A DNA stretch of 64,000 nucleotides from Cenarchaeum sp. (GCA_963693095.2 OY843768.1:448001-512000); one strand, 5' to 3'. Numbered from the stretch's first letter, positions 8,779-64,000 are shown. Translations and numbers: made by a program. Notes: a model not told the origin generated them from the sequence alone.

Positions 8779-9692
8779 GGGCGCACACGCCGTTCCACCT
8801 CCTCACGCTAGGCGAGCTCAGCTCGCGCCAGGCCGGAGCCATCATCGAGCGCGCCAGGCGCCTAAAGCGCTCAAGGCCCGCGCGCACCGCACCGCTTGCG
8901 CACCGCTCGATGGCGATGATCTTTTCAAAGCCGTCCACGCGCACGCGCGTCAGCTTTGAGGTCGCAATGGCCCAGCTGGGGGGACACGCCATACCGCTAG
9001 AGGGCTCTAGGATGCAGACATCGCGCGGCGAGTCGCTAGCCGACACGGCGCGCACGCTATCCAGGTACGTTGATGTCATAATGGCCCGTGTGTATGACCA
9101 TGCTGACATTGAGGAGCTTGCGCAGAGCGCCTCTGTCCCAGTGATAAACGGGCTGTCAAACTCGTTTCACCCGTGCCAGACGCTCGCTGACCTCCTGACC
9201 ATACGCGAGCGCAAGGGGCGACTCGCCGGCGTGCGCGTGGCGTGGGTCGGCGACGGAAACAATGTGTGCAACTCGCTCATACACGGCTGCGCACTGACGG
9301 GCATGGAGATCAGCATTGCGACGCCTGCCGGATTCGGACCGGACTCTGGCGTGGTCAGCTCGGCAAGGGAGAGGATCGCCGTGACAGTTGGCTCGAGTCC
9401 CGAGCGTGCCGTGCGTGATGCTGATGTCGTGGTCACTGACACGTTCTCCTCGATACACGACAGGGGCCCATCGAGAAGGAAAAAGTTCCTGCCGCGCTAC
9501 CGCGTCACTGACAGGCTCATGGCAATGGCCGACAAGGACGCGCTGTTCATGCACTGTTTGCCGGCAAAGCGTGGCGAGGAGGTCAGCGCGTCAGTTATAG
9601 ACGGGCCGCAGTCAGTCGTGTGGGACGAGGCCGAGAACCGACTCCACGCGCAAAAGGCGCTCCTCCTATGGCTGCTCGAGCGGGCGCGCTAG
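8775..9692 (+). CDS. argF: Ornithine carbamoyltransferase
   Basis: Motifs STRTRVSF, HPCQ, GDGNNV, FMHCLP and AENRLH. Confidence 0.95.
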   Translation: MRAHTPFHLLTLGELSSRQAGAIIERARRLKRSRPARTAPLAHRSMAMIFSKPSTRTRVSFEVAMAQLGGHAIPLEGSRMQTSRGESLADTARTLSRYVDVIMARVYDHADIEELAQSASVPVINGLSNSFHPCQTLADLLTIRERKGRLAGVRVAWVGDGNNVCNSLIHGCALTGMEISIATPAGFGPDSGVVSSARERIAVTVGSSPERAVRDADVVVTDTFSSIHDRGPSRRKKFLPRYRVTDRLMAMADKDALFMHCLPAKRGEEVSASVIDGPQSVVWDEAENRLHAQKALLLWLLERAR

Positions 9693-45190: not shown

Positions 45191-45240
45191 CATGGGAGAC
45201 TGGGTGAGTTATGGCCCGTGCGGCAGATATGGCAGAGTGA

Positions 45241-45248
45241 TTATATAC
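45241..45248 (+). promoter_or_regulatory. TATA box (TTATATAC) of the giant surface-protein gene
   Basis: About 25 nt before ATG 45272, the leaderless spacing seen for many genes in this window. Confidence 0.7.
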
Positions 45249-45271
45249 TTGGGCGTTTCTCTAGGCGCACA

Positions 45272-48200: not shown

Positions 48201-51200
48201 ACCTTGCGTCCCCGACGGCGAATGATCCGAGCTTTACGAACGCGCGCACGATAACGTTTACGCTGAGCGAGCCTGTGGTGCGGACGTTCCTTGAGCGAAC
48301 GACCGTCTCGCCCTCCCTTGGGACCGTGACTGTCAGCGTTGACGGACTCCGTGTCACCCTGAGCGGCACGACTAACGCCATTGACGGCACAACATACTCG
48401 ATAGAGGTGCCTAGCGCCGTGAATGACTTGAGGTGTGTTGGCATGCCGGACACATGCGAGCCCAACATGTTCTCGCTCGATAGTGTGGAGCTGGTCTATG
48501 GTGACACATACGCCCCCACGGCAGATTCTGCGACCTTTCTGTCCTCCTCGCGCATAGATGTTGAGGTCAGTGAGACACTCGATGCAGACACGCTGTCTGG
48601 CATTACAGTAAGCCCGCCACTGGGAACTCTCACAGTGACCCAGTTTGACCTGACAGTCGTGATCAGCTTTACCGGCACGCCGAGTGCCGGCACGGAATAT
48701 ACGGTGACGATTCCGACGACGGTTACTGATGCGGCCACTCCGCCCAACGCCTTTGCCCTCACCACGCTCACGGAGACGTACAGCGCTGACATGACTCAAC
48801 CCACATTGGTCTCTGCCACCCAGACGTCATACGGCGTGTTCGTCTTGAGGTTTAGCGAACCCATCACGGGGACTACCACAACGGGTGACTGGTTCGTGTG
48901 GGATAACCGAGCTCCGGATCTTGATCCAGATGCTATTCGATTTCCCGCCATAGTGAACGTCGCGCTGGACGGCGGCTTTGCCACCTCTGCGACTTCGCTC
49001 ACAATACCTGGAACCGGCGCACTTGTGCGAGAGATCACGCTGTCAGTCAGGGTCGAGTCCACAGAATCCAGGCCGATAGTTCAGCATGTTGGAAGCGGCC
49101 TTACGGATCTGTCAGGTAACATCCTTCGAGACACTGACAGGAGCAATGAGCATGGTTCCGTACGTACCATAGACGAGGCACCTCCTGAATCCCTGGGCAT
49201 CGTGGTAGAGTCGACCAGAGCGCGCCAGGCAGATCTGGTTCCGGGCATCGACATTGGCACACAGCTCGTAAAGACTGGAGACACGGTGACATTTACTGTT
49301 GAGTTTGATGGCAGCTCGAGCGCGCTTCGCACAGTTTTTCCGCGCACAACACTTGAGGTAAACCCAACAATACAGTACGTTAGGGGCGGTACGACATACC
49401 CGCTGGCATACCATAGTGATGTGGAGAACTGGTCGCACACCCTGGCCATCACAGGGGATATGCCTGATGGCCTGCTCGTGCCGTTCATAACGATCAAAGA
49501 CCAAGCCGGCAACATCGGAGAGTACCTGGGAGCATCCACCAATCCCAATGCGTGTGACCGTATCGCGGACGCTATACCTGCGAATCGGGCGACAGGGTGC
49601 CTGCAGGGGGTGGGACTAGAGCAGGGCCTGCCACGGCTCTTCCCCACCGTGGACAACTCGCCGCCGGTGATCGAGTCAGCAGAGACGACGACGACTACGA
49701 CGACGCTAGTCACGCTTGATGAGCCTGTCCTCACATCTACGGGCACGCCCGCCCAGATTGCTGACAACTGGGCGATGACTAGCGGCACAGATACCGTCAA
49801 CGTCAGCTCGGCGGCCGTGGATGGCTCCGAGGTGACGCTCACACACGATACGCTTGACACCTATGCGACGCCGACGCTCACATACACGAGGGGGACAACT
49901 GAGGATGCGGGACGCATCATTGACAGGGTGGATAACAGCCTTGCCCAGGCAGACTCGGTTCCCGTGGCAGACGGCACGGCACCCGCGTTCGTCTCGGCAA
50001 CCATTGGGGCATCACCGTCGCGCACGGTCACTGTGATATTCAGTGAGGATATCGCCCGGTCCTCGGTGAGCGCCACGACGATAATGCTTGAGGACTCGGA
50101 CGGCACGGCCGTCGGGGGCACCCTGCTGTACCACGATCCAGACAACGAGGACACCGTGGCGATAACGTTTCCGTCCAGCGCTGTGGCGCTAGACGGCATG
50201 TACACCCTGCGCATAACGACGGGGATAACGGACGCCTCGCCGCAGGCGAACCCACTGCCAGCCGAGGCTACGGCAAGCATAGCCCTAAACACGGAGGCTC
50301 CGTACATGGTGTCGGCCACAACACGCCTTCCAGCCTCATCACTCCTTGCTCTCTCTGGATACAACACTCAACCTGGACCTGTCAGCACCGTGTTACACTT
50401 GTATGATGGGGCACAGTCTAGGTCTGTGGTGCCCTCGCCGCTTAGCGCAATCACTACGGTGACACTCAGCGAGCCTGTGACTACGCCGGGTTCTGCCACT
50501 ATGGAGAATGTGAGATCCCACTGGAAAGTTGCGGCAGGCTCGACGGACCTGACCGTGACGTCCGTTGCCGTGTCTGGCAGGACAGTCGCCATAACGCACT
50601 CTATACCGGCCAGTACGGACAGCACGTTCACGGTAACGCACACGGTCGGCGACAGTGCGGGGCTCGTCATGGACTCGGCGAACGCCAACATCGCAGACGA
50701 TGAGAATGCCCAGTCATCTGATGGCATCATCCCACTGTGGAGCGCGCGTCTCACAGGCCCCACGACTGCGCTAGTGACGTTCAGCGAGCCGGTGATGCAG
50801 GTTCCTGGCACAACTGCCATTGACGCGTGGAGGGCATCTGGCCGCGGTGACCTTGCTGACCAGCGAATGGGAGAGGACAGGTACAGCCGCGCAAACGACG
50901 GCGATCGCCGCCTGGCAAGCGCCACGCTCTCTGATGACGGGAGGAGCATGACGCTGGAGATGAGCGCGGCAATACCCACAGACGACAGGGCGTACTCGGC
51001 CACAAACCTCCCCTGGATAAAGTACTATCCTGGCGCATTTGCGAGGCAGTCGCCGGTGCCCGCCACAGCCATCGCCAACACAATCGTGGACTTGGCAGGC
51101 AATGCGCTAACTGACCGCGTGTACCAGACAGGCGACGGCATTGCCCCCGTTCTCACAGTCGCCTCGTTTGACGGCACGACGATGAGCGTGACGTCATCCA

Positions 51201-54200
51201 GGCCGCTTGACTCGGCGACGATCCAGGGCGGCAACTTTGTCCTGAGGGGGCCGGGCTCGCTGACAACCACGCACACGCCGACGCTTGTGGCGGGCGGCAC
51301 GACTAGCGCGTTCTCGCTGGCCTTTTCGCCTGCCCTGACGCTGTCCGGCTCGTACACGATGGTTCTCGGGGACGTTTATGACACGGTCACCACGCAGCAT
51401 CCGGGCGAGACCAGGGCAGGCAACCGCCTCGTCCTCAGCGAGCCAACAGTCATGTTCCTCCCGTCGGGCGCCACGAACCCAGTGCTCGCATCGGCCGAGA
51501 CGCTCACAAAGACGACGACGCAAGTCACGTTTAATCAGCCCGTGGAGGGCATGACGTCGCGCAGCCAGTGGACCATCACGTCACAGGGCCTGACGATAAA
51601 TGTCCTCGGCGTGGCCGCCGGCTCGGCGACACCCGTGGATAGCGCCGATCCAATAACGGTTGCCCGCAGTGGCGCGACGCTGACAATGACGCTGCTCCAC
51701 GATGCCATCTCCTCGGGCCTGACGCCTGGGATTGACTATGATCCCGCCGGCGATACCAGTATAGCCGATGCGAACAGGCTGCGCGACAACTCCAACAACG
51801 CCGTATTGGGGACTGGCACCACTGGCCCCACGGCGACTGACGGCATTCCGCCGCAGGTGTCTGATGCGACGTTCATTGCACGCAACGGGCTCCGGTTGAC
51901 CTTTGAGGAGCCCCTTGCGCAGGCAAGCGTGACGGCGATGGGCACGACATTTACGATCACCGACCCGTCAGGGGATCCCGTGAGCCTTGCGAGTGATAAT
52001 CCCGTGAGCTATTCCGCATCGTCACAGTCAGTCACGCTGATCCTCGAAGACTTTACCACGGAGCATGGCGACTATGGCATCACAATCGTCGGCGTCACTG
52101 ACACCGTGTCGCCTACCGCAAACTCGTGCACCGCCATGACGTGCACGACAACGGCGGACCGCGAGGTTCAGCTTCCGGTGCTGGGCACCACTGGCTCGCT
52201 TGTCGCCAGCGTCCTGTCAGGCGACCCGCTGGCCGCAAAGTCCACAAACCCAAACATCGCCACGGGTGGCGACACGCTGCGTGTGGCACTCACGCTGGCT
52301 GGCATTGTGCCGGATCCGGCCGCGCCGTCTGTGATCGACTCGGCACTCCTGAGGGATATTGACATCCCGACGATCAGCTTCTTTGGTGGCGCAGAGGTGA
52401 TCATGACTGACGTCACGCAGGCAGGCTCGCCGGCAAAGTCATCCTGGTCTATTGACTATATCGTGCCGTCCACGCCGCAAAGGGATGCACAGGCCGAGTT
52501 TTCGATAACGATCGGACATAACCTCGACACGGCCACGTTCACGCGGGCCGAGCTGACGTCTGGCACGGCAGTCAGCGTCGACACAAAGCCCCCCGGCCTC
52601 TCGGCGTCTGCTGCTGACCCCCTGTACACGAGAACCGAGGCGGTGGGCGCGACTGCTGGCCTCGGCTCGGCACGCAACGCGCAAGTGGGCGACGTGATGC
52701 TCGTCGTGCTCACCACTGACGAGCCGCTCTCTGGCGTCATCCTCGGCGATGCGACATTCTCTAGCGGCCGTGCCGCAACAGATGTCTCGTCTGACCACAC
52801 GTCGCGCGGAATCACCCCCGCGCTCCCGGAGGACACGTACGTCTATTCGCGCACCGTGGCCTCTGATGAGCCCGAGGGTCCTGTAGAGTTCTCGATCACG
52901 GTTCGCGACGCAGTCGGCAACACGGACACCCTGGACGCCGATGACCTGCCCACGGGGGATGACGCGACGGGCTATCGCCTGAGCGTCGACAGGACAGCGC
53001 CTACTGTGAGCAGCGCAATGTTCACCTCTCCTACAGTGCTGACCATAACGTTCGGCGAGTCCGGGATTCAAACGCTGCCTGCGACGCTGACGCTGACTAG
53101 GACATCTACGCCAGGCACGACGACTTCGACGCTGACTGCGACGCTCTCCGGGGAGCCTGATGGCGCGTCTGTGACATACACCGTTCCGGCAATCCAGCCG
53201 TACGCCCCCGAAAGCGCCGAGTACACGTTCACGCTGCCTGCGACGATCCTCGATGATGCGCTCAACGCATACGTGCCGCCCGCAGACGCCATTATGGTCT
53301 CCGAGTCACCCGTCACGATCTCCTCGGCTGAGACATCGTCGACTACCGTCACGGATGTCACGCTCTCGGCGCCGCCGGCCGCACTGGGCACCGACGCAAC
53401 GCCTGCCACGCCAGCCACGCCTGCGCAGATCGCCTCGCACTGGTCAGTCTCTGAGGTTATCGACGGCACGACAGTCACCAGGGAGGTCACGGGCGCTGCG
53501 ATAACGGACTCCACGATTCGCCTCACGCACGCGCCCCTTGCGTCATCATCCTCGACTCCCTCGGTGGCGTACACGGCGCCTGCGTCACGGGCGGTCGGAC
53601 AGCTCGTTGATGCCACCTCGAGCACGCTCTCTGTCCAGACGTTTAGCGGAACCGCGGCTGATGGCGCGCCGCCCGTGATGACGGCACGCTTCACAACGCC
53701 TGCAATCATCACAGTCACGCTGGACTCGCCGTACGTGACCACGCCGGCCGAGCGGGCCCCGGCGCTGTCAAACACAATGTCCCCGATGGACAACGCCGCG
53801 ACGTTCACGCTGGCCCAGGCCCCGCCTACGACGCTCACGCTGAGCCTTGGCGGCACCGTGGATGACGGGACATACGAGTTCACAATCACGGTATATGACT
53901 CAAACGGCAACATGGGAGTACAGGCCTTTTCACTCGACAGGGACTCGACTAGCATATTCGCCTCGGCAAGAACCCTCTCGCACACAAGCGTCGAGGTCTC
54001 CTTTGCGCTCGGCACGGCGCTAGCGCAGGGCGTGACCTCCCTTGATCCCGCGCGCTGGACAGTCATCACGCCCGTGGAGGGCGCCCAGGGAGCCACAACG
54101 ATCACGGTGGCCTCCGTGTCGGCCCTCGCGGACAACAAGGTGACGCTCACGCTGGCCTCGCCGGGCATGGTGGCCTCGGACGGCACGCCTGACACGGCGG

Positions 54201-57200
54201 CAACGCCGACCGTAAAGTACACGCGCGGCGTGGGTGACGCCGTCGAGATCCTCGGCTCGACCTCTGAGGAGCTAATGTCAGACTCAAAGCGGGCAACTGA
54301 TGCGGCCCCGCCGACTCCCCACTCGGCCGTGACGTCCTCGACGGCCAACGGCGAGAGGCTCGTCATGGCGTTCAGCGAGCCCCTGTACGTTGGATCCGTG
54401 GCCGCCCCCGGAATCACAGACGCTGAGATTACCTCGCAGCTCTCCATCCACGTCGACGGCGCCACGGAAGGCACGGCCCCGTCGTCCATATCGCGAAGCT
54501 CTGATGGCACAGAGCTCACGCTGACCTATACGGGAGTATCGCTCAACCCCGTGGCCGCATCCACGTTTGTCCGCTATGACGGCACGCTGCCTGTAGGCGA
54601 GCGCATTCTAGACGTCGTGCCCAACACGCTGTCTAATGCTGCCCTGGACACGCTCGTGACGGACATGATAGTGCCGTCGATATCATCGGCCAGGACTGCG
54701 GGGGCCACGACGACAGAGGTCACGTACGACGAGCCGATCGCCCTGGTCGGCGACCCCGCCTCACTCTACGCGATAGAATTTCCGGCCGGAACCACGACGT
54801 CCCCCGGCTCTGTGGCCATAAAGACCGGCGATCCCAGCGTGGCCGTCCTGACGCACTCGTCTGTCACGTATGGGGTGGACTCTACTGCGACCCTGGCCTA
54901 CACGGCCGGCACGGCAGTGCTGTCCGTGACTGATGCGGCAGCGGGCGCAAACAGGGCAGAGGCGGCCACGGAGGTGCGAATTGCCGACGGGATCGCCCCA
55001 AAGATAACGGGGGTGGAGACTGAGTCGCAGACGACGACGATCGTGACGCTTGATGGCCCTGTAACGGCCGGCGGTGATGCCGCACAGCGCTCGCGGCACT
55101 GGACCGTGACTGACGTTGACCCTGACGGCACAGGGCCGGTGGCCGCGCCAGACAGGGCAGTCTCGGGAGTCGACACCATTGACGCGGCTGGCGCCATAGC
55201 CACATCGGGCATGAGCATTCGCCTCACGCATGCCGAGCTCTCAGACACGGCCTCGACGCCGACTGTCGCGTATGTCGCGCGCGTCGACAGCAATGCGGAC
55301 GGCACGATCGACGCCTCAGACGAGCCAAGCAGGGTCATCGACCCCGCCGTCGATGTGTCCAGCATGCCGGCGCCAAACATACTGGCCGGCTATACGACGA
55401 CTGCAATTGACAAGGCGCCGCCGGTTATAACGGCAAGGTTTGCGACTGCGACATCGATAACCCTGACGCTCAGCGAGCCCATAGAGCGCACGACGGCGCT
55501 CCTCACGCGCTCCAACTGGGACATTGACAGCGCAGGAACCGGTGACAATCCCCGCCTGCTCCAGACCTCCACGCAAACGGAGACGGCCGTGTCATACCCC
55601 GCCTCCACGCCATTATCCATGACGATTCGCCTTAACGATGCCGCATCTGACAATGTCCACACGCTTACCATCCCGGCCGGTATAGTCGACAGGGCAGATA
55701 CGCCCAACGCCTATGTGGCATCGCGTGCGCTGACCGTCGATCCGATCGCAGGAGTCGCGTTTACGGCAAGTGCGACAGGACAGTCAACGATCGAGATCAC
55801 GTTCACCACGGACGTCGAGAGGATCGGCTCCGCTCCGCTGGCCACCTCGGCATGGATCGTCTACGAGACACCAACACAGGGCACACAGGCAGAGCGCATC
55901 CCGATCTCCTCAGTCTCAGCCCTTGCCGACAACAAGGTGACACTGACGCTCTCGCCCTCGCCTGGCAGGGATGCGCAGACGTCGACTGGAAAAACGCCAT
56001 ACGTCGAGTATGTGCGCGACACCTCTGAGTTTAGGGATGTGGCCACGCGTGTGCCCCTTGCGGCAGAGGCGAGCGCGGTTGCCACTGATGACACCGACCC
56101 GACGATAAAGTCGGCTAGAACGTCATCGACCACGCAGATCACCGTCACGCTCAACGAGCCAGTCGGATTTGTGGGCACGGGAGCCAATGCGCCATCTACG
56201 GCAGGCCAGATCGCGCAGTGGAGTGCATGCGTCCCGCCCGAGGGTTCCTCGTCATGCACTGTGGCCGAGACGCTCTCGAGCATCGGCATAGCCATCTCTG
56301 GCTCCACAGTGACGCTGAACTTTGCGCCGGCTGACGAATGGGAGACAGACGTCGTGCCGGTTGTGACATACCGCAACATCGACGAGCCAGAGGACTCTGA
56401 GACGCCCGTGGCTGACCTCTCGGAGCGCGCGCGCGCACGGCTAGTCGACGTCAACGGCAATGGCATGGACGCAGTGTCGTACCAGTCCGCCGACGGCGTC
56501 GCGCCGGTCATCGTGTCGGCATCTACGGCCTCGGTCAGATCCATCAACGTCGTGCTCTCCGAGGTGTCCGTGTTCGCCCCCGCGTCATCCACGTCGGCAC
56601 AGCGTGGGCCTCACTGGACGGCCACTGTGGATGGCACGAGCAGTGCAGGCTCGACTGCGGCGATATCGACGGTATCAGGCACCTCGACTCTCACGTTCCG
56701 CGTCGCCTCTGAAGGCGCATGGACTGGAGACGACTCCCCGACTGTCGCCTACGTGGACCCTGCCGGTGCCGGACGCGTGACTGACGTGCATGGCAACGCC
56801 ATGCTGGTGGCCTCTGGGGTGATGACGACCAATGTGGCGGCTCCCGAGCTGCTCAGCGCAAGAACGGTGTCGCTTGGCCGCACCGAAGTGGTGGTCTCAA
56901 AACCCGCCCAGATCAACGCTGGCACAGCCGCACAGGTGATTGGGCACTGGTCACTTCTCGACATCGACGGGGGTGACGCCGGCGATGCCCCTGATCCCGT
57001 GACGATCAGGGGTGTCCGCCTAGATGACAGCATATCCCACGAGCCGGCCTCGTCTGTCGTAGAGCTCTCCCTGTCCGGCTCGCTGCCAAATGGTGTCCAC
57101 GAGATAACCGCACGCAACACGATCGCCTCGACGGGGGGCACGACGCCCTCGTCTGACCAGACGACGCGCATTACGTCCTACGTCCCGCCGATGGTCTTTG

Positions 57201-60200
57201 AGGACCTGACCTTGGGTGATGATCGCATATCCCTGCTGTTCAGCCACGATGTGGAAGAGTCCACCATCCTGGGCAGCCTGGTACTGCCATCAACCATGAC
57301 AGTGCGGGGAGACGACCCTGTGTCATTCCAAAGACTCAACAACAAATTGGTCCATGTGGACGTGACGAGGACGCCGGACCTCGTGGAGAGCGTCACAATA
57401 CGGGACACGATACGCTCAACAGAGGGCCACCGGCCGCTCGGCGACCAGGTGATCAGCAAGTCGACCACCTCACAATCCCTCAACGATGCTGACGTGTCTC
57501 CTGACGGACGGTCAATATTGCTCAACTTTGACGCCGAAATCTCTGCAACCACGGCAGTCGTGGCCGCCTTTGAGCTCCCGACAGGAGTCAGCTTTGCCGC
57601 ATCTAGCCCCGTGGTGACCACGGCAGGCTCTACTCTCGTCACGCTCAACCTGTCCTCACAGCTGCCCAGGGGCATTCACACAATCTCGACAAAGGAGACA
57701 CCCGCACTGGTCAGTACGACTAGCTCCGTCCTGTATCCGGGCACGCACACAATTACGTGGGATCCGGAACCACACGTCCTTGAGCACGTCTCGACGTCGC
57801 CGGACGGACGGACAATAACGCTCCACTTTAGCAGGTCAGTGGACACGAGCACGCTCACGCCGGCCAACATTGCGCTCTCGACGGGCACTGCGCTAACGCA
57901 GTCCCAGATATCGCATGCCGTCGGCCCCAGGGTGACGATCACGCTTGATGCGCCGCTGGCCACAGGCACGCACTCTGTGACTGTGCGCACGGGCGTGACT
58001 GCGTCAGGGTACCCACTGCCCAGCGAGACGGTCAGGTCGTTTGTCCACATGCCGTCTGCGCCATCCATCACCTCGGCGTCGCTCTCAGATGACGGGCGAA
58101 CAGTGACGCTGGTCTTTAGCCACGCGCTGGACTCGGCCACAGTCACGCCTGCGGCCCTGTCATACTCTGAGGCCCTTGAAGGCGTGGTCGGGGACAGAAC
58201 GCGCCTGATCATAGATCACGACGATCTCTCCGGACCGGGGGCGGCACCAACACTGTCATACGACCCTGACACGTCGACTAGTGGGACCATTGCCCTCAAT
58301 GGCGTCTCCACGTCGCTGGTGGAGGAGACGCCATCCCTGGCCGTGGCTGACGGCATCCCGCCGCGGCTCGTCGGCGACCCCGAGCTAGTGGGCTGGTCAT
58401 TTGGCAAGATTTTTGGGCCTGACAGCACCGAGCCTCCCCCACGAAACCTGCAAGACGCCGTTAGGTTCACGTTTAGCGAACCGATGAACAGGGATGACCT
58501 GATCGTCACATTCGATGTTGGCGGCGCACAGGTTTCTGCTGCGCCGGGTCAGTTCGCTTTCTATCAGGGTTCTAGTGTGATGGCCCCTGGTAACACCTTT
58601 CTTAACACGCATAGAGGACAAATTATTTTCCCTTTGACATACAAGACCGACGCGGGGATAGTTCGATTTGCCCCCTTGCCTGAATATCGGGATGAATCTA
58701 CGTGGGGCCAGGTCATTCCTGGCTATAACAGCTTTGATCTTCCCCGAGCTGCGCTTGGTGCACACCTTGACACCACGAACATGATATACACGATCTATAA
58801 TCAGGGCGGTGCGACCACAGAGGGTCTTGGTTTCGTTCGATTTATAGATCTGGCAAATCACCCGACCGTTCAACTACGAGACGTGGCCGGAAATCCGTAC
58901 ATTCCCGACCAGTCCAGGAAACATGATGAATTTATCCTAGAGACAGACACTGTGGGTCCGAAGTTTCGTGCCAAAGTGGCCTCGCCGACACAGATCAATG
59001 TAGAGTATCTGGAACCCGTGGAGATCAAGCAGGGTCGGGAGCTGCGATCCGCTGATTGGAGGATAGATCTGACGCCAGACGACGATAGTGACAACGAAGA
59101 CGGCAACCCCAATTGGATTGGGCCCACGGCAGTCACTCACGCGTTTGACGAGTTCCCCAACCCCGAATTCCTCTCCTATGGTGACCTTGGAACCAGGTCG
59201 AGACTCACGGTCATGCTCACAGTAGACCCGCCAACGGAGACTGTGAATGCCATGTCGCCCCTTGACGCGACTTCCCTTAACGTGCACTATGTCGCAAGCT
59301 CGGCAGATGTCGCCGATGCGCGCTCTCATGACGCCGTTGTGCCATTCGCCTTCGAGTACCGTCCAGGGGTAACTGACAACACAGGCCATGACGAAATCGC
59401 GCCGGCTGCGGCATCACTGGTGACCACAGTCGAGCGACCGACTGCCACGGAGGGGGAGTTTGCCGAACGAACAGGCGCGTTTGCGCATTACGCGATGGCT
59501 GGTGACAGGATCACGGTCAGCGCAGTGCTTGACTCACCGGCGCTTGCTGCAACCGCTGACGCGGGAGTGGACGTGGGCGTGCTCACGCCGTACCTGGAGC
59601 TGGGAACATACGCTGTGAACATGGAACAGGGCACCCCGCCGCAATACAGCGTCGTAATTCCCACGACAGTCACTGATGCTGACGGGATAGCGTTTGCCGC
59701 AGACACTAGCCACGCCGTGACGTACGTTGCCTCGCCGCCGACACTCTCAAACCCGAGCTTTGGCGCCCCGTCGAGGATATTCATTGAGACAAGCGAGCCG
59801 CTAGATGACACGACGCTAACGCCCACTAGCGTCAGAGTGGAAGGGCTTGAGACGGTGCGGGTTGACCGCGAGATCGACCGCGTGGTGATAAACACGCGAC
59901 ATGACGCGATCCCAGGAAAATCGTACACGATCCGCATTGCCGACACGGTCACTGACACTGACGGGGTTGCCACGGCCGCAACGACGCTGTCGGTGCAATA
60001 TCCCGTAAAGGCAACTGCGACTGCAAGGTTTGCCAATGACAATCGTCTGGTTATAACGACCAGCGAGTGGATCGTCGAGAGCAATATATTGGACAGATAC
60101 GTATCGCTCTCTGCAGTCGGGGGCACGTCGGAACCGCTGGATCTCGAATCCGCTACATTCTTCTTCCCGCATCTCGGATTTAATATTGATGATGACGTGC

Positions 60201-60943
60201 CGACTGGCACGTACGAGCTCACATTCTCTGACTCGTTCGTGACGAGCGCGGGCACGACGTTTGAGAGCCCGATCCTAGTTGAGCATGTGGCAGGCCTGCG
60301 GACGCCAGAGGGGGCGCCGACGGCATCCAACGTGAGGTTCTTTGGCCCGGAGCACATACAGTTCGAGATGGACCAGTATCCTGCCACATCGACGCTTGAG
60401 AACATTGAGGTTCCGACTCTTGGGGTAAAGCGCGTCTCGCGCGACGCACTGACGATCACGCTGGCCCTGGAGGGCCGCGCCGACAGGGTATCGTGGCAAG
60501 CGTCGTGGATCGTGCCGACTGCGGACTCTACGACGCTGACGCAGGGCCCAATTGACTTTACGATCACCGCCACGGATGCGGCCGGCAACGCAGGCGACAT
60601 TGGGCAGTCAAGCGTGTCGACGGGAACCAACAATGCCATAGTCGACACGACGATGCCGACATTTGAGGCGGCCATCGTGGCCTCGGACCGCACGAGCGTG
60701 ACGTTCGTCGAGCCTGCGCGCGGGACGATCGTGGCGTCCGAGTGGTGCGTCGAGGGCATCGCCTCGGTGGGAGTGTCAGCTGACGGTGTAGAGTTTGCGC
60801 CGTCATACGCTGTCGTTGACGCGGCGACAGTCACGGAGGGCCAGACGTTCATCCTGCGCCATACGGCAGTGCCGCACGGAACCGAGCCGACAGTAGAGTA
60901 CTCGCCAAGCGAGCCGTGCGCGCCAGATGCGCCCAGCGGATAA
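45272..60943 (+). CDS. Giant (~5,220 aa) secreted Ser/Thr-rich protein of tandem Ig-like (Big_5/SwmB-like) domains
   Basis: Signal peptide MWAWRAAVVALVGVVALGAISGVMA-QE. Dozens of ~100-aa beta units follow (D..PP....A......VT.SEP...D.AGN). No C-terminal TM anchor. Confidence 0.9.
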   Translation: MWAWRAAVVALVGVVALGAISGVMAQEALTASPLTTRTLVDGVPTQVHAKVGSTISISVETSSAVTITTSDVSFFGRGSQAVAPTSVTGSGTSWEVRLNVVNSHVEGPLRFWITAHDAVMPTSTITLTEADIAGHHVSIDRTRPEFTITPTSSTTTLVTLNEPLSPLVAASRELDVSRWCVNDSQTRQIMCSPDADYNRDVTSATVLSLGLSPVILLTHEPVVHLSDMVVVFDHHDTSTPFLFTDAALNLPAIPASQSGVDASMQRIFVSPPAASSDHVFPFTAEYDVGNRRILVRMGDAIGLTGNLTPANWRVEHGEPSPDVTTNDLLTRTITQSPPSETDLHVRYIGLVPAATVPENANLWVTYTPGGSPPLRVGTAGMILTGSAQFALNPDTRPTTLTVSAQRDSGSGPASYDGDLRASDTITVTMRLREATLSTSVPTISFFGEAAVDMTGTAGGRDWTATLAVRDDDASTDGVNEGTPEGSVEFDITATNVGLTAVRYDESHVTDGSSVSVDRTPPQVRTAKFVDSRSEIHVVPDEPVSHTSLTDLFTATSGGSEVELSDVTFDALRGAYVIEITAAAQGSTYVLTPTAGAITDGAGNALAGSFSVVDESAAPTVTSMSLDVLRADEAGMYVLRSGAHAEYAMADDVIRVTLGLNEITHPITVPTVRFFDQQTPVAMNGSPGDMAWTADFLVTSMTREGSVEFDIVALDYVGNAADIDETGVTDMSDAIVDLTAPLASPSMTFSYTATPTGFTLFFAEDLDDTTVMTSAFVLKSPEGGVVMQSAAPTYAASTPSAQAGVSFTTAALSDGDHTVEIATSLTDRAGNSYVADDVTVYVDTTAPTVTGIATESSTTTIVTLDEAVMADGNAAQRLRHWTVTDDDPDGSSGPIEAPVRAISNVEVIDTEGMAAASGERIRITHASLASTASTPTVAYTPVSTDVGGIGAVTLGLVTDASPPLATRLAAVPATEADDLASPTANDPSFTNARTITFTLSEPVVRTFLERTTVSPSLGTVTVSVDGLRVTLSGTTNAIDGTTYSIEVPSAVNDLRCVGMPDTCEPNMFSLDSVELVYGDTYAPTADSATFLSSSRIDVEVSETLDADTLSGITVSPPLGTLTVTQFDLTVVISFTGTPSAGTEYTVTIPTTVTDAATPPNAFALTTLTETYSADMTQPTLVSATQTSYGVFVLRFSEPITGTTTTGDWFVWDNRAPDLDPDAIRFPAIVNVALDGGFATSATSLTIPGTGALVREITLSVRVESTESRPIVQHVGSGLTDLSGNILRDTDRSNEHGSVRTIDEAPPESLGIVVESTRARQADLVPGIDIGTQLVKTGDTVTFTVEFDGSSSALRTVFPRTTLEVNPTIQYVRGGTTYPLAYHSDVENWSHTLAITGDMPDGLLVPFITIKDQAGNIGEYLGASTNPNACDRIADAIPANRATGCLQGVGLEQGLPRLFPTVDNSPPVIESAETTTTTTTLVTLDEPVLTSTGTPAQIADNWAMTSGTDTVNVSSAAVDGSEVTLTHDTLDTYATPTLTYTRGTTEDAGRIIDRVDNSLAQADSVPVADGTAPAFVSATIGASPSRTVTVIFSEDIARSSVSATTIMLEDSDGTAVGGTLLYHDPDNEDTVAITFPSSAVALDGMYTLRITTGITDASPQANPLPAEATASIALNTEAPYMVSATTRLPASSLLALSGYNTQPGPVSTVLHLYDGAQSRSVVPSPLSAITTVTLSEPVTTPGSATMENVRSHWKVAAGSTDLTVTSVAVSGRTVAITHSIPASTDSTFTVTHTVGDSAGLVMDSANANIADDENAQSSDGIIPLWSARLTGPTTALVTFSEPVMQVPGTTAIDAWRASGRGDLADQRMGEDRYSRANDGDRRLASATLSDDGRSMTLEMSAAIPTDDRAYSATNLPWIKYYPGAFARQSPVPATAIANTIVDLAGNALTDRVYQTGDGIAPVLTVASFDGTTMSVTSSRPLDSATIQGGNFVLRGPGSLTTTHTPTLVAGGTTSAFSLAFSPALTLSGSYTMVLGDVYDTVTTQHPGETRAGNRLVLSEPTVMFLPSGATNPVLASAETLTKTTTQVTFNQPVEGMTSRSQWTITSQGLTINVLGVAAGSATPVDSADPITVARSGATLTMTLLHDAISSGLTPGIDYDPAGDTSIADANRLRDNSNNAVLGTGTTGPTATDGIPPQVSDATFIARNGLRLTFEEPLAQASVTAMGTTFTITDPSGDPVSLASDNPVSYSASSQSVTLILEDFTTEHGDYGITIVGVTDTVSPTANSCTAMTCTTTADREVQLPVLGTTGSLVASVLSGDPLAAKSTNPNIATGGDTLRVALTLAGIVPDPAAPSVIDSALLRDIDIPTISFFGGAEVIMTDVTQAGSPAKSSWSIDYIVPSTPQRDAQAEFSITIGHNLDTATFTRAELTSGTAVSVDTKPPGLSASAADPLYTRTEAVGATAGLGSARNAQVGDVMLVVLTTDEPLSGVILGDATFSSGRAATDVSSDHTSRGITPALPEDTYVYSRTVASDEPEGPVEFSITVRDAVGNTDTLDADDLPTGDDATGYRLSVDRTAPTVSSAMFTSPTVLTITFGESGIQTLPATLTLTRTSTPGTTTSTLTATLSGEPDGASVTYTVPAIQPYAPESAEYTFTLPATILDDALNAYVPPADAIMVSESPVTISSAETSSTTVTDVTLSAPPAALGTDATPATPATPAQIASHWSVSEVIDGTTVTREVTGAAITDSTIRLTHAPLASSSSTPSVAYTAPASRAVGQLVDATSSTLSVQTFSGTAADGAPPVMTARFTTPAIITVTLDSPYVTTPAERAPALSNTMSPMDNAATFTLAQAPPTTLTLSLGGTVDDGTYEFTITVYDSNGNMGVQAFSLDRDSTSIFASARTLSHTSVEVSFALGTALAQGVTSLDPARWTVITPVEGAQGATTITVASVSALADNKVTLTLASPGMVASDGTPDTAATPTVKYTRGVGDAVEILGSTSEELMSDSKRATDAAPPTPHSAVTSSTANGERLVMAFSEPLYVGSVAAPGITDAEITSQLSIHVDGATEGTAPSSISRSSDGTELTLTYTGVSLNPVAASTFVRYDGTLPVGERILDVVPNTLSNAALDTLVTDMIVPSISSARTAGATTTEVTYDEPIALVGDPASLYAIEFPAGTTTSPGSVAIKTGDPSVAVLTHSSVTYGVDSTATLAYTAGTAVLSVTDAAAGANRAEAATEVRIADGIAPKITGVETESQTTTIVTLDGPVTAGGDAAQRSRHWTVTDVDPDGTGPVAAPDRAVSGVDTIDAAGAIATSGMSIRLTHAELSDTASTPTVAYVARVDSNADGTIDASDEPSRVIDPAVDVSSMPAPNILAGYTTTAIDKAPPVITARFATATSITLTLSEPIERTTALLTRSNWDIDSAGTGDNPRLLQTSTQTETAVSYPASTPLSMTIRLNDAASDNVHTLTIPAGIVDRADTPNAYVASRALTVDPIAGVAFTASATGQSTIEITFTTDVERIGSAPLATSAWIVYETPTQGTQAERIPISSVSALADNKVTLTLSPSPGRDAQTSTGKTPYVEYVRDTSEFRDVATRVPLAAEASAVATDDTDPTIKSARTSSTTQITVTLNEPVGFVGTGANAPSTAGQIAQWSACVPPEGSSSCTVAETLSSIGIAISGSTVTLNFAPADEWETDVVPVVTYRNIDEPEDSETPVADLSERARARLVDVNGNGMDAVSYQSADGVAPVIVSASTASVRSINVVLSEVSVFAPASSTSAQRGPHWTATVDGTSSAGSTAAISTVSGTSTLTFRVASEGAWTGDDSPTVAYVDPAGAGRVTDVHGNAMLVASGVMTTNVAAPELLSARTVSLGRTEVVVSKPAQINAGTAAQVIGHWSLLDIDGGDAGDAPDPVTIRGVRLDDSISHEPASSVVELSLSGSLPNGVHEITARNTIASTGGTTPSSDQTTRITSYVPPMVFEDLTLGDDRISLLFSHDVEESTILGSLVLPSTMTVRGDDPVSFQRLNNKLVHVDVTRTPDLVESVTIRDTIRSTEGHRPLGDQVISKSTTSQSLNDADVSPDGRSILLNFDAEISATTAVVAAFELPTGVSFAASSPVVTTAGSTLVTLNLSSQLPRGIHTISTKETPALVSTTSSVLYPGTHTITWDPEPHVLEHVSTSPDGRTITLHFSRSVDTSTLTPANIALSTGTALTQSQISHAVGPRVTITLDAPLATGTHSVTVRTGVTASGYPLPSETVRSFVHMPSAPSITSASLSDDGRTVTLVFSHALDSATVTPAALSYSEALEGVVGDRTRLIIDHDDLSGPGAAPTLSYDPDTSTSGTIALNGVSTSLVEETPSLAVADGIPPRLVGDPELVGWSFGKIFGPDSTEPPPRNLQDAVRFTFSEPMNRDDLIVTFDVGGAQVSAAPGQFAFYQGSSVMAPGNTFLNTHRGQIIFPLTYKTDAGIVRFAPLPEYRDESTWGQVIPGYNSFDLPRAALGAHLDTTNMIYTIYNQGGATTEGLGFVRFIDLANHPTVQLRDVAGNPYIPDQSRKHDEFILETDTVGPKFRAKVASPTQINVEYLEPVEIKQGRELRSADWRIDLTPDDDSDNEDGNPNWIGPTAVTHAFDEFPNPEFLSYGDLGTRSRLTVMLTVDPPTETVNAMSPLDATSLNVHYVASSADVADARSHDAVVPFAFEYRPGVTDNTGHDEIAPAAASLVTTVERPTATEGEFAERTGAFAHYAMAGDRITVSAVLDSPALAATADAGVDVGVLTPYLELGTYAVNMEQGTPPQYSVVIPTTVTDADGIAFAADTSHAVTYVASPPTLSNPSFGAPSRIFIETSEPLDDTTLTPTSVRVEGLETVRVDREIDRVVINTRHDAIPGKSYTIRIADTVTDTDGVATAATTLSVQYPVKATATARFANDNRLVITTSEWIVESNILDRYVSLSAVGGTSEPLDLESATFFFPHLGFNIDDDVPTGTYELTFSDSFVTSAGTTFESPILVEHVAGLRTPEGAPTASNVRFFGPEHIQFEMDQYPATSTLENIEVPTLGVKRVSRDALTITLALEGRADRVSWQASWIVPTADSTTLTQGPIDFTITATDAAGNAGDIGQSSVSTGTNNAIVDTTMPTFEAAIVASDRTSVTFVEPARGTIVASEWCVEGIASVGVSADGVEFAPSYAVVDAATVTEGQTFILRHTAVPHGTEPTVEYSPSEPCAPDAPSG

Positions 60944-60959: not shown

Positions 60960-62075
60960 CTATAGGGGCCTGAGCCCCGATATTGCGGCTAGGAGGCGAA
61001 GGTTCTGCAATGGCTCGGCCTGTAGGGATTTTGTCGGCGTGAGTCCCTGAACCTCCCCTAGAACCTGCCTTTTAATCTCTGCACTCTCGGCCCCGTGCGA
61101 GTCCTGCCTGCATGCGACCATGGTGTCATTTAGCAACCCTATGGCATCCTGCCTGCTGATGTGCGACTCTGCCACGGCCTTTAGGCATGACGCATACAGC
61201 CATGTCTTTAAGATGCTTAACTTTTGCGCGTCCTCGTCATATATGAAATTCCTAGAGAGGTACTGGCTCTTAAACTTGTTAAACATGCCCCTCTGCTCGT
61301 CTCCCATGCGTATGCCGTCGGCAAAGCTCAGCTGCTCGCTCAGGAACCTGTCTGTGTGCTCCAACACCTCGTCAATTGACGCGTCAGTCGAGGCGTGATC
61401 CACCTTGAACTGCGTGATGGTCGGAAATGTGGTAATGGCATCGTCTATGTCCTTTGGGCTTGATCCGTCTAGCAATACGCCCACATCGTACATCTGCTTT
61501 GGCGCGGCAATGTCCTTCTTCCTGACCGAGTAGCCGATGCTCCCAAAGGAGAGGGACGAGATCTTGTCTGCTAGCAGTGCACCTCGTGTGCTGGCCACTA
61601 TGTCGTGCGTCGTCTCTCCGGCGTACGTCTTGAACCCCCTGGGAATCGTGCAGTGTGGCACATTGACGTTGACGTCATGCATTATGTCTAGCTTAATGCG
61701 GTCTTTCTTGTTGTCCTTGCCGAACTTTGTCTCATATTTCACCGTAAAGCGCGTCACAACGCCTATTCGCTCCATGGGCCGGTCTGGCTTGCACTTTAGT
61801 CCCGCATCCACCATAATCTCGGGCACGACTGACTTTATGCGCTCCTTAGTCTCGCTCGTGAGTATGTCGACGTCCACGCTTAGGCGCGAGGCTTCTGTCC
61901 TGCCAACATAGAACGGCATGCACAGGCCGCCACGAAGGGTGCATCTGACTCTTTTCGACAGCAGCTCGAGGACGTAAAAGTCCATCATTAGCTTTTCCAC
62001 GTTTTCTGGTATGGCAAAATTGTACAGCATTGCGATTCGCTCTATTGCCTCCCTGCTGTGCATGTACCATGTCAT
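60960..62075 (-). CDS. AbiEii/AbiGii-like nucleotidyltransferase (type IV TA toxin family)
   Basis: EKL..D...LE, LRGG.C...Y...RLSVDVD (GG and DxD motifs), IKLD, LLADK and KQMYD. Confidence 0.85.
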   Translation of the reverse strand: MTWYMHSREAIERIAMLYNFAIPENVEKLMMDFYVLELLSKRVRCTLRGGLCMPFYVGRTEASRLSVDVDILTSETKERIKSVVPEIMVDAGLKCKPDRPMERIGVVTRFTVKYETKFGKDNKKDRIKLDIMHDVNVNVPHCTIPRGFKTYAGETTHDIVASTRGALLADKISSLSFGSIGYSVRKKDIAAPKQMYDVGVLLDGSSPKDIDDAITTFPTITQFKVDHASTDASIDEVLEHTDRFLSEQLSFADGIRMGDEQRGMFNKFKSQYLSRNFIYDEDAQKLSILKTWLYASCLKAVAESHISRQDAIGLLNDTMVACRQDSHGAESAEIKRQVLGEVQGLTPTKSLQAEPLQNLRLLAAISGLRPL

Positions 62076-63931
62076 AGCGTGTCACCTAGGTACTTGCTGA
62101 CGGCCGCGTCAATCTTGCGGGTCCTGGCAAACGCGATGATCCTCCCCCTGCTGACCTGGTTTTCATGCACAAGGTCCTTGATCATCTCGAGTTCGGCCTC
62201 GTACTGGACCATCTTTTTCCTCTTGACCTCAAAATACAGGTCCACCCACGATTTCTCCAGTGGCGCGACTATGGAGTTTGGAACCTTTGCGTATTCGCGT
62301 ATCGCAATGACGTTCTTGCGTGACAGCTCAAACACCGCCTCAAACTGCGCCCTTGTGGGATTGCGCAAGACGTCAAACTCGCCGTGCCCGCGTATTGCCC
62401 TCTCCAGCTGGCCTCCGGCGCCCTTGATCGTGTAGACTGTGTAGACCATCTTGTTGTACGCATAGTGCAGGTACTCTGTCAGCGTGGAGAGCCCCGTAAA
62501 CTGCATCTTGTGGGGAAATTCCCCTAGGTGGGACTGCAGGCCGGCAAGATCCCCGTGGAGGGTCTCTAGGTTCCGCGTGCGTGTCTTGCGCGCCCTTGGC
62601 GCAAGCACGCCTGCTAGGTGACTCTCCCACGCCGCATTCCTCTCCTGCACGTGCCCTGGCATGACCCCGTTGCGTGGCATCGTCTCGACCTCTAGGCGCA
62701 GCATGATGAGCAGGAGCAATGGGTTGCGAAACGCGCGAAATGTGCCACTCTGGCGATTGACTAGAATCTCTGTCACGTCCCCACGCCTCTCTATGCGGTA
62801 TACGCCCGAATCTGCGTTCTCCATCCTCATTACGGTCTTTCCAAACTTTGACTTTATGGGAATCTCCTCAATGCCGTCGATCAGCCTCTGCGACTCGGCA
62901 TCGCCGAGGCGCAAGATGCGCTGGTCGCCTGCGCTTCCGCATGAATTGACTATGGACTCGACATCGTGCTCTTTGCGCATGTGCTCTGCTGCCACCCGCA
63001 GCATCTCCCTGACTGTGCGATCAGACCTGAACGCGTCCTGCGCCTGCCGATACCCTGCACTCTCTGTCAAAAACCCCGTCTTGAATATGTTTACGGGGAC
63101 ATTGTCAAGTGACACGCTGCCGATGATCCTGGCCACCGTTGGATGCTCTGGTATGCCAAACTTTGCGTATGGCCTGATCAGCCGCCCGTTGGAGTACAGG
63201 TGTATGCCATAGTCTCCCCTGATCGAGCGCCGCCTCTGCAGCGCTATCCACCCGTTTACCGTGGTGCCATTTCCGGTCGTGAACTCTATGCCCTTCACGC
63301 TGCTGTCCTCAATGTCGGGATTCCTTGCCACGCACTGCCTCCCGTTTACCGATATGGACACGATGCCGTCCCTGATGTACGGCCCGTACCGCATGCCAAA
63401 CTCGTCCCTCAATTTCGTCGCCTGGGCTGCATAGATGGCGGCGCGAAGGCCAGATATGGCTATCTCTGTCCCGTGGGTTCTGCCCTCTGCTGCGCGGGCT
63501 GAGACCTTGATCTTGTCCCAGGAGGCACCCTTGTCCCCAAGCCACTCCTCCTCGTCATACGCGAGGACCAGCCGTTGGTCTGACCCGGCGGCCCTTGTGC
63601 CTATCGAGACCATGCTCCCCAGGGCCGACGTTGCGCTCTTTAGGCCCATCCCGAACTTGCCGATCCGGCCGTCTGGCCCTGATGACGCGCCGGCTATGGT
63701 CCATGCGCGCTCGAGGCCGCCGATATCCATGCCCCTGCCGTCATCGCGCACGGTAATGGTGCCCCCTGCATAGTCTAGCGTGACCTCGATGCTCTCGGCC
63801 TCGCCGTCGATCCTCGCATCTATCGCATTGTCGACGATCTCGGCGATGGCCTGTCCTGTGCTGTATCCTGCCATGCCCAGCTTTCTTATCAGGCTCTTGT
63901 CAGGCGTGGCGTTCACGGTGAGCTCGCTCAT
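62072..63931 (-). CDS. MORC/GHKL ATPase with S5-like domain and a C-terminal AbiEi-like domain
   Basis: GHKL motifs AIAEIVDNAIDA, DDGRGM, GKFGMGLKSA and GTEI, then G..LYSNGRLI. The C-terminus has FTGLSTL..YL and VAPLEKSWVDLY. ATGA overlap with the downstream gene. Confidence 0.85.
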   Translation of the reverse strand: MSELTVNATPDKSLIRKLGMAGYSTGQAIAEIVDNAIDARIDGEAESIEVTLDYAGGTITVRDDGRGMDIGGLERAWTIAGASSGPDGRIGKFGMGLKSATSALGSMVSIGTRAAGSDQRLVLAYDEEEWLGDKGASWDKIKVSARAAEGRTHGTEIAISGLRAAIYAAQATKLRDEFGMRYGPYIRDGIVSISVNGRQCVARNPDIEDSSVKGIEFTTGNGTTVNGWIALQRRRSIRGDYGIHLYSNGRLIRPYAKFGIPEHPTVARIIGSVSLDNVPVNIFKTGFLTESAGYRQAQDAFRSDRTVREMLRVAAEHMRKEHDVESIVNSCGSAGDQRILRLGDAESQRLIDGIEEIPIKSKFGKTVMRMENADSGVYRIERRGDVTEILVNRQSGTFRAFRNPLLLLIMLRLEVETMPRNGVMPGHVQERNAAWESHLAGVLAPRARKTRTRNLETLHGDLAGLQSHLGEFPHKMQFTGLSTLTEYLHYAYNKMVYTVYTIKGAGGQLERAIRGHGEFDVLRNPTRAQFEAVFELSRKNVIAIREYAKVPNSIVAPLEKSWVDLYFEVKRKKMVQYEAELEMIKDLVHENQVSRGRIIAFARTRKIDAAVSKYLGDTL

Positions 63932-64000
63932 GCCTGAGCGGTAGGCGTCTCCTTATATATACATCAGGATTTTCGTTTAAATAGCTAAATACCTGTTTCA

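Follow-up and report, generated by a model that had tools for sequence, protein, structure and literature searches.

The final 3 kb of the 64,000-nucleotide stretch of Cenarchaeum sp. DNA analysed here (GCA_963693095.2 OY843768.1:448001-512000, hereafter the window; G000:C1:448001-512000 of a 2.0 Mb genome in two contigs) carries, on the minus strand, a gene pair whose composition appears to be undescribed. The upstream gene (gene 1) encodes a GHKL-S5 ATPase module followed by an AbiEi-like C-terminal domain, and the downstream gene (gene 2) encodes an AbiEii-type nucleotidyltransferase. We consider it fairly probable that the two genes form a bicistronic AbiE-type toxin-antitoxin (TA) or conflict module of the Nitrosopumilaceae, in which the antitoxin has been wired to an ATP switch. 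The pair is best described as a variant of AbiE (type IV/VII), since it agrees with that system in its toxin, in how the operon is arranged, and in the domain carried by the antitoxin, whereas the N-terminal winged helix-turn-helix (wHTH) by which AbiE is also recognized is absent.

Composition of the gene pair

The organization of the locus agrees with what a first-pass annotation, made from the sequence alone, had described. The open reading frame (ORF) coordinates are those of its two-gene minus-strand operon with an ATGA overlap (Table 1), and all of the peptides it had quoted (QFTGLSTLTEYL, VAPLEKSWVDLY, RGGLC...RLSVDVDIL, LLADKISSL, and PKQMYDVG) are found in the translations. Given ~90 full-length homologues of gene 1, with E values from 0 to 1e-88, the gene pair is evidently real rather than a product of chance ORFs. 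The few gene 1 homologues that carry names belong to Thaumarchaeota or Nitrosopumilaceae, and metagenome-assembled genomes (MAGs) of Cenarchaeum and Nitrosopumilus are the source of the related loci.

The assignment of gene 2 to the AbiEii/DUF1814 family, likewise proposed in the first pass, holds. The Pfam family AbiEii (PF08843) matches it at 3.1e-12, scoring 47.4 bits where the cutoff is 22.5, the PADLOC AbiEii model PDLC02299 does so at 4.5e-16, and PF08843 also matches 26 of the 27 gene 2 homologues. The residues G49, G50, R64, S66, D68, D70, K171, K193, and D197 are invariant in 27/27 sequences, and the conserved motifs are GG, RxSxDxD, DK, and PKQxxD, which we take to be the defining motifs of the AbiEii family. 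S66 lies four residues before D70 and two before the first catalytic aspartate. In MenT3, the phospho-acceptor is S78 (10.64898/2026.01.19.700257, a study cited here and below from part of its text) and the catalytic mutant is D82A (title of entry 6j7n). As the spacing from serine to aspartate is alike in MenT3 (S78/D82) and gene 2 (S66/D70), we infer that S66 is the equivalent of S78 and that it sits where the characterized relatives have their phospho-acceptor Ser/Thr.

What joins gene 1 to the AbiEi antitoxins is its C-terminal domain. DUF6577 (PF20217) scores 28.5 bits on residues 380-619 alone, against a Pfam cutoff of 27.8, and the AlphaFold2 (AF2) model of the same piece has a predicted local distance difference test (pLDDT) score of 87-97 from model residue 81 onward. 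Among 40 homologous C-terminal pieces, DUF6577 matches 20 at E <=0.01 (best 1.6e-9), the PADLOC AbiEi model PDLC02235 matches 18 (best 3.8e-9), PDLC02243 matches 13, and eight more AbiEi models each match a few. No hidden Markov model (HMM) of PADLOC covers gene 1 convincingly as a whole, in keeping with the novelty that had been claimed for it: the best, PDLC02235, reaches E 5.6e-4 over 130 of the 619 residues with the C-terminal half of the model, and MzaB matches the N-terminus only. Within the C-terminal domain, F19, N53, L83, F99, T100, L105, E167, and D185 are invariant.

The nature of this domain is further clarified by its wider family. Searching 1.84 billion representatives with a profile built from the C-terminal region returned 273 proteins. 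Among the best 150 of these matches, 26 are fused forms of at least 600 aa, which rank first, and the long tail behind them consists of 230-310-aa proteins whose match is confined to the AbiEi-like part (E 1e-35 to 1e-7). All ten of the tail proteins sampled carry DUF6577 above threshold, and N-terminal to the match a wHTH was found as AbiEi_4 in three of them (above threshold in one) and as TrmB in one. DUF6577 is therefore the domain that forms the C-terminus of an AbiEi-type antitoxin family, and the gene 1 ATPase stands where some free-standing members have their winged helix. Among free-standing proteins, these DUF6577 proteins come closest to the gene 1 C-terminal domain in sequence, and they differ from gene 1 in being only 230-310 aa long and in having a wHTH or another short N-terminus in place of the ATPase. 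The earlier proposal that the ATPase takes the place of the AbiEi winged-helix head is thus supported by sequence comparison. Consistent with this, scans with Pfam, PADLOC, and NCBIfam detected no HTH family in gene 1, where AbiE antitoxins have their N-terminal autoregulatory wHTH.

Judging from its family matches and conserved residues, the N-terminal module of gene 1 is a GHKL-S5 ATPase. HATPase_c_3 matches residues 23-126 at 7.5e-15 (55.6 bits against a Pfam cutoff of 25) and HATPase_c matches at 8.2e-9. In an alignment of 41 gene 1 homologues, with identities to the query as low as 32%, the motif residues E31, D34, N35, and D38, followed by D63, G67, G91, F93, G94, G96, G154, and T155, are all invariant and G65 is conserved in at least 90%; K284 and further residues of the S5 region are invariant as well. 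The four GHKL motifs and the S5-like region recognized in the first pass are therefore both borne out. The AF2 model of full-length gene 1 (pLDDT 81.5, predicted TM-score 0.52) is divided into four parts. Its S5-like part consists of beta strands (213-274) and helices (292-315), and the middle region, in which the Pfam scan of residues ~321-460 yielded no family match, contains a small beta-rich domain (344-392) and linker helices (397-442).

Structure comparison with Foldseek places the first ~370-420 residues of gene 1 near Hsp90/TRAP1, MORC4, MORC2/3, and SMCHD1, all with similar E values of 1e-16 to 1e-14. The alignments of the ATPase module with MORC4 and SMCHD1 span 370-423 columns with TM-scores (target) of 0.57 and 0.44, respectively, the former (7k7t_B) at E 2.2e-15 and with a root-mean-square deviation of 5.9 over 370 columns. 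Morc6_S5 (PF17942) was not detected on gene 1 at the Pfam cutoff of 26.2 bits. It likewise stays below this cutoff in the two paralogues, with 19.7 and 17.4 bits, and in L043, an archaeal locus more distantly related, with 23.2 bits, and exceeds it only in a shorter relative of the ATPase (L071, 36.7 bits); in precomputed annotations, PF17942 occurs on 9 of 98 gene 1 homologues. The MORC type given to the gene 1 ATPase in the first pass is plausible only, and the ATPase may instead be Hsp90-like, as Hsp90/TRAP1 and MORC score alike in Foldseek.

Table 1. Positions in the window of the two genes, their domains, and associated sites
Feature	Position	Strand	Basis or remark
Gene 1, GHKL-S5 ATPase with AbiEi-like C-terminal domain (putative antitoxin or regulator)	62072..63931	-	ATG-start ORF, 619 aa
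GHKL (Bergerat-fold) ATPase domain, residues 1-200	63332..63931	-	HATPase_c_3, invariant motifs, Foldseek
S5-type transducer domain, ~residues 201-320	62972..63331	-	AF2 model, K284, Foldseek
Middle region, ~residues 321-460	62552..62971	-	AF2 secondary structure, lower pLDDT
AbiEi-like / DUF6577-like C-terminal domain, ~residues 461-619	62075..62551	-	
Gene 2, AbiEii/DUF1814 nucleotidyltransferase (putative toxin)	60960..62075	-	ATG-start ORF, 371 aa
Catalytic RxSxDxD motif of gene 2 (R64, S66, D68, D70)	61866..61886	-	invariant in 27/27 sequences
ATGA overlap, probable translational coupling	62072..62075	-	gene 1 TGA 62074-62072, gene 2 ATG 62075-62073
TATA-like box TATATATAA, putative promoter element	63953..63961	-	-30 to -22 from gene 1 ATG

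Conservation of the pair and decay of the putative toxin gene

The pairing seen in the window recurs elsewhere, a point on which the proposal of a coupled system had depended. The Cenarchaeum genome itself contains three paralogous pairs, the other gene 1 copies being 51% and 40% identical to the one in the window and the other gene 2 copies 36% and 28%. We compared 39 loci having a gene 1 of the full-length type (L004-L042), all of which come from Thaumarchaeota MAGs with the exception of a contig assigned to a Dehalococcoidia bin. At 24 of the loci, gene 1 is immediately followed by an intact AbiEii-like ORF, separated from it by -98 to +24 nt, and mostly by -8 to +24 nt. At 12 other loci gene 1 is intact and the toxin gene is fragmentary, interrupted, or missing; both genes are degraded at two, and the last is cut by a contig end. 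The more distant archaeal locus L043 also encodes both components, namely a 655-aa protein with a DUF6577 match of 35.1 bits, followed by an AbiEii match at 7.6e-8. In a family sample of 301 genomes, gene 1 occurs in 26 and gene 2 in 22, distributed over the same 9 of 27 genera. Gene 1 is directly upstream of 23 of the 24 intact-looking toxins in this sample (with a 1.7-kb spacer in one case and as a fragment at a contig end in another), and the remaining toxin sits at the start of its contig, while two orphan toxin matches are short fragments with stops. Gene 1 is thus kept while the toxin decays, which is the asymmetry expected of a toxin-antitoxin pair.

A sister genome (G012) provides a further example. 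The giant gene next to its syntenic site shows 98.6% DNA identity. At the site itself, gene 2 lacks ~943 bp, from codon ~55 to the end (L084 5535-7600), and gene 1 is an intact 619-aa ORF with 76.7% amino-acid identity, a dS of 0.47, and a dN/dS of 0.30. Since gene 1 is intact and the toxin truncated, gene 1 outlives the toxin here too. The cassette DNA is 81% identical between the two genomes, and the other two pairs differ from those of the sister genome by dS of 0.012 and 0.09. This suggests that the sister genome carries a different allele of the cassette at the same site, as would result from replacement at a hotspot, rather than a copy that decayed in place. Relaxed selection was considered as the cause of the fast divergence and dropped, because dS is high as well and, together with the dN/dS value, is better explained by allele replacement.

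Several individual loci deserve separate mention. The contig binned as Dehalococcoidia (L017, CBDCTF010000004.1) carries the full pair, with a gene 1 of 39% identity and a 387-aa AbiEii-like gene, and reflects either inter-domain transfer or a binning error. At two loci (L009 8287-9705 and L038 8423-9758), ~1.4 kb of inserted DNA, which may be an insertion sequence, interrupts the toxin gene; the insert in L009 has a 414-aa ORF at 8248-9492. One genome (L035/L085, G071:C2:804658-882765) contains four or more copies of gene 1, of which several lie within 80 kb, and one of its toxin genes lies 1.7 kb from gene 1.

Relatives of the ATPase module with other partners

Outside the family of full-length proteins, the GHKL-S5 module has been reused with several different effectors. 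Shorter relatives, with ~35% identity over the first 300-360 residues, are found in candidate phyla radiation (CPR) bacteria, DPANN archaea, and others, and they differ in their C-termini and in their partners. A ~540-aa relative lies directly upstream of a CBASS-type cyclase at one locus (L059 5971-8608; PADLOC Cyclase 7.5e-126, Pfam SMODS, CD-NTase) and another relative of ~540 aa lies directly upstream of a Shedu SduA nuclease (L056 4888-7480; 1.7e-23). At nine bacterial loci (L069, L071, L074, L075, L076, L078, L079, L080, and L082), whose hosts include CPR lineages, Clostridia, and proteobacteria, a 417-427-aa relative is followed by a protein of 367-399 aa, and the relative in L071 has a C-terminal PEP-utilisers mobile domain (2.6e-23). 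No Pfam family was found in the three partner proteins checked against Pfam and no PADLOC match in the one checked against PADLOC. The 417-427-aa relative and its partner may represent another undescribed two-gene system.

Comparison with described systems

The nearest described counterpart is AbiE of L. lactis and S. agalactiae, a type IV system for which type VII has now been proposed. Like the Cenarchaeum pair, AbiE is bicistronic with the antitoxin gene first, and its DUF1814/AbiEii toxin has a Ser/Thr two residues before the first catalytic aspartate. However, gene 1 has 619 aa, of which ~460 residues of GHKL, S5, and linker replace the wHTH, as compared with the 195 aa of the AbiEi chain 6y8q; in addition, the host here is an archaeon and the two systems are so far apart in sequence that searches of PDB sequences do not link them. 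As reported in the part of the AbiE study covered here, AbiEii acts as a tRNA nucleotidyltransferase with pyrimidine specificity, AbiEi binds to it and triggers auto-phosphorylation of the toxin at T65, and a helix-to-strand loop of the antitoxin is required for neutralization; the activation of the AbiE toxin upon infection is called elusive there, with the antitoxin suggested as the sensor (10.64898/2026.01.19.700257). The MenAT systems of mycobacteria would share with the Cenarchaeum pair the neutralization through induced auto-phosphorylation of the toxin, described for MenT1 and MenT3, and they differ in that no ATPase is fused to any MenA dealt with in the same part of that study (10.64898/2026.01.19.700257).

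On the side of the ATPase, the MORC and paraMORC proteins of restriction-modification (R-M) type loci (PMC2292703) share with gene 1 an N-terminal GHKL and S5 module, the ATP motifs, a patchy distribution, and a conflict context. As far as the covered part of that paper goes, they are linked to helicases, nucleases, and methylases, none of which adjoins the gene pair. The main text of the same paper (Iyer, Abhiman and Aravind 2008), in the part covered, mentions no nucleotidyltransferase, COG2253, or COG5340, and its supplement might list such neighbourhoods. The paraMORC-Ymh HEPN fusions (PMC3710099, Anantharaman et al. 2013) likewise combine a GHKL ATPase with a toxin-system domain in one polypeptide; according to the portion of that paper available, the fused domain is an RNase toxin in R-M loci, whereas in gene 1 it is of the antitoxin type and the toxin is encoded by a separate gene. 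Tiamat and MZA also employ a GHKL-type ATPase in defence, and MzaB models match the first ~90-135 residues of gene 1. Nonetheless, gene 1 was rejected as an MzaB, because the NCBIfam model scores 39.5 bits against a cutoff of 850 and covers residues 17-151 only. It was also rejected as a Tiamat, which is described in the covered text as an ATPase with a PD-(D/E)xK NOV_C nuclease, since Pfam finds no such nuclease in gene 1.

The literature covered, on AbiE, MORC/paraMORC, GHKL, and DUF6577, contains no description of an ATPase-AbiEi fusion together with AbiEii, in agreement with the first-pass annotation, which knew of no system with this architecture. No match was found that pairs AbiEi with GHKL or DUF1814 with HATPase, or that names DUF6577, and in partly covered texts that pair AbiEii with MORC, 'morc' is merely a reference or an author name. 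In the portions covered, the Tiamat preprint does not mention AbiE, the 'dark matter' paper of Makarova et al. 2014 mentions no GHKL, HATPase, COG2253, or AbiE, and a ParA preprint has AbiEii only as the partner of a START domain. Haber et al. 2021 describe a putative AbiE-family system that occurs only in sponge-associated Thaumarchaeota; the available part of that paper does not mention an ATPase fusion, and its supplement might list neighbourhoods.

Proposed mechanism and rival explanations

How AbiE and MenAT toxins are released upon infection is an open question, and an antitoxin fused to an ATPase offers a direct handle on it. By homology with MenT1, MenT3, MenT4, and S. agalactiae AbiEii, gene 2 would most likely add nucleotides to tRNA 3' ends and thereby stop translation, and gene 1 would neutralize this presumed toxin via its AbiEi-like C-terminal domain. 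The probable route of neutralization would be toxin binding and auto-phosphorylation on the invariant Ser66, as in type VII systems, or otherwise sequestration. An ATP-dependent, dimerizing GHKL clamp could then set the availability of the antitoxin domain, and some trigger (our guesses are foreign DNA, a viral protein, and falling ATP levels) might withdraw neutralization such that newly made toxin arrests the cell. The strict conservation of the ATPase site suggests that ATP turnover matters, and the reuse of the ATPase module with other effectors points to a role as a sensor or switch. A conflict-system setting is further suggested by the AAA_15/AAA_21 ATPase gene upstream of the pair and by the divergence of the cassette from that of the sister genome beside a nearly unchanged flank. 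An ATP clamp in place of the DNA-binding head of an AbiE antitoxin may reveal what turns these toxins on. Mutation of the gene 1 ATPase and a search for its ligands are both feasible, and phosphorylation of the toxin can serve as a readout. For the ammonia-oxidizing archaea, whose defence repertoire is poorly known, the pair adds a conserved multi-copy conflict module.

Several observations weigh against this interpretation. The score of DUF6577 on the whole of gene 1 (25.8 bits) is below the Pfam cutoff, and a sequence profile of the C-terminal domain found only chance-level matches in the PDB, with no AbiEi chain among them. Foldseek, run with the C-terminal model on the PDB, likewise produced nothing significant (best E 0.13), and VIA-align was required to bring up AbiEi. 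The AbiEi similarity that the first-pass annotation had attributed to the C-terminus is borne out by the DUF6577 and AbiEi family matches among the 40 homologues. A gene 2 profile run against PDB sequences also retrieved only chance-level matches and no solved MenT or AbiEii chain, and because of this the equivalence of Ser66 is drawn from motif spacing instead of an alignment. The 39-locus and 301-genome sets overlap and consist of kin genomes, so their counts are not independent. The first-pass annotation had speculated that sensing of foreign DNA or of R-M inhibition might gate a tRNA-targeting toxin; at this locus, no R-M genes (methylase, nuclease, or helicase) adjoin the pair. Among the characterized relatives, MenT4 is not phosphorylated and not all COG2253-COG5340 pairs use phosphorylation (10.64898/2026.01.19.700257, from the covered part), such that this mechanism should not be extended to the family as a whole. 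S. agalactiae AbiE failed to protect E. coli against any of 32 coliphages according to the same partial source (10.64898/2026.01.19.700257), and a defence role of AbiE relatives is accordingly not general. A prediction of the complex between gene 2 and residues 76-240 of the C-terminal piece scored 0.00 in both runs, which were made without controls, and counts neither way.

It is conceivable, if rather doubtful, that the GHKL-S5 module is the infection sensor which AbiE-type systems otherwise lack. Clamping of the ATPase on foreign DNA or a viral protein would take the AbiEi-like domain off duty, whereupon unphosphorylated toxin would shut down translation. The ATPase would then be a portable sensor cassette of archaea, CPR bacteria, and DPANN archaea with interchangeable effectors, including AbiEii, the CD-NTase, the Shedu nuclease, and the PEP-utilisers mobile domain partner with its 370-400-aa protein.

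Alternatively, the pair could be an ordinary selfish or addiction TA module, in which GHKL-S5 serves only as a DNA-binding autoregulator, stabilizer, or dimerizer and the toxin is freed upon loss of the cassette or failed expression. Canonical AbiEi does autoregulate through its N-terminal wHTH (PMC7319586; 10.64898/2026.01.19.700257, both from covered parts), complexes of a MORC-type ATPase with DNA have been solved (title of entry 9cdj), and a 46-bp unit repeated 3.2 times upstream of the promoter is a possible operator, while loss of the toxin with retention of gene 1 would suit any TA module. We nevertheless regard this explanation as unlikely. By eye, no array of this kind was seen upstream of either paralogous pair, the catalytic residues of the ATPase are invariant in 41 sequences with identities down to 32%, which would be costly for passive DNA binding, and the occurrence of the ATPase module with CD-NTase and Shedu effectors elsewhere points to a regulatory or sensor role. 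A still different possibility is that the pair is not a TA system, and that the AbiEi-like domain, with a nucleotidyltransferase-like fold, and gene 2 are the two parts of one enzyme that makes or modifies a nucleotide or RNA signal under ATPase control, in the manner of signalling-type defence systems; in favour of this, a relative of the ATPase module adjoins a CD-NTase. The AbiEi C-terminal domain is, however, a known antitoxin domain (10.64898/2026.01.19.700257, covered part). In addition, apart from F99, T100, E167, and D185, its invariant residues here do not include a catalytic signature of the GG...DxD type, and the retention of gene 1 without its toxin at 12 of the 39 loci and in the sister genome, together with the finding of no evaluable intact toxin lacking gene 1, is not what a two-part enzyme predicts. 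This makes such an enzyme improbable.

The GHKL superfamily includes protein kinases, and the GHKL domain might itself phosphorylate Ser66 of the toxin, leaving the AbiEi-like domain merely to dock the substrate. S66 is invariant in the 27 gene 2 sequences, and AbiEii/MenT toxins are neutralized by phosphorylation of a Ser/Thr beside the catalytic aspartates (10.64898/2026.01.19.700257, covered part). Yet gene 1 combines HATPase_c_3 with an S5 region and its conserved lysine, its structural neighbours are the ATPases of Hsp90, MORC, and SMCHD1 rather than kinases, and the characterized toxins phosphorylate themselves with an antitoxin that binds no nucleotide (10.64898/2026.01.19.700257, covered part), all of which renders a kinase role highly improbable. 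The AbiE-type module with a putative ATP-controlled antitoxin is the interpretation we retain.

Genomic context of the locus

The AT-rich promoter region that had been noted upstream of gene 1 comprises the TATA-like box TATATATAA and a second AT-rich stretch at 63975-63992, and both paralogous loci have TATA-like AT-rich boxes at the equivalent position upstream of gene 1. From this placement we infer an archaeal promoter and an mRNA that is leaderless or nearly so.

No tRNA, integrase, or R-M gene lies beside the pair at this locus. Upstream of gene 1 and on the same strand, a 540-bp spacer is followed by a three-gene cluster (L083 573-3288 (-), equal to G000:C1:512472-515187), which encodes a 549-aa AAA_15/AAA_21 ATPase and then two ORFs of 180 and 175 aa without a family. 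The ATPase matches PADLOC PD-T4-4_A at 1.8e-33 and is also AriA/GajA-like. The cluster, which the corresponding region of the sister genome lacks, probably forms a second defence module. On the other side, the pair is convergent with an ORF of 5241 aa, the end of which is 17 bp from the gene 2 stop. This ORF (window 45218-60943, plus strand) is rich in Thr, Ser, and Asp, and the other flanking giant ORF (L083 4069-15099, plus strand; >3677 aa) contains an Ig-like domain of the Big_5 family. The two ORFs presumably encode surface proteins. Just beyond the TATA-like box, ~80-230 bp upstream of the gene 1 start and past the end of the window (window-equivalent 64010-64158; L001 3436-3584), lies the tandem array of 3.2 copies of a 46-bp unit with 96% matches, which could be an operator or a mobile-element remnant.

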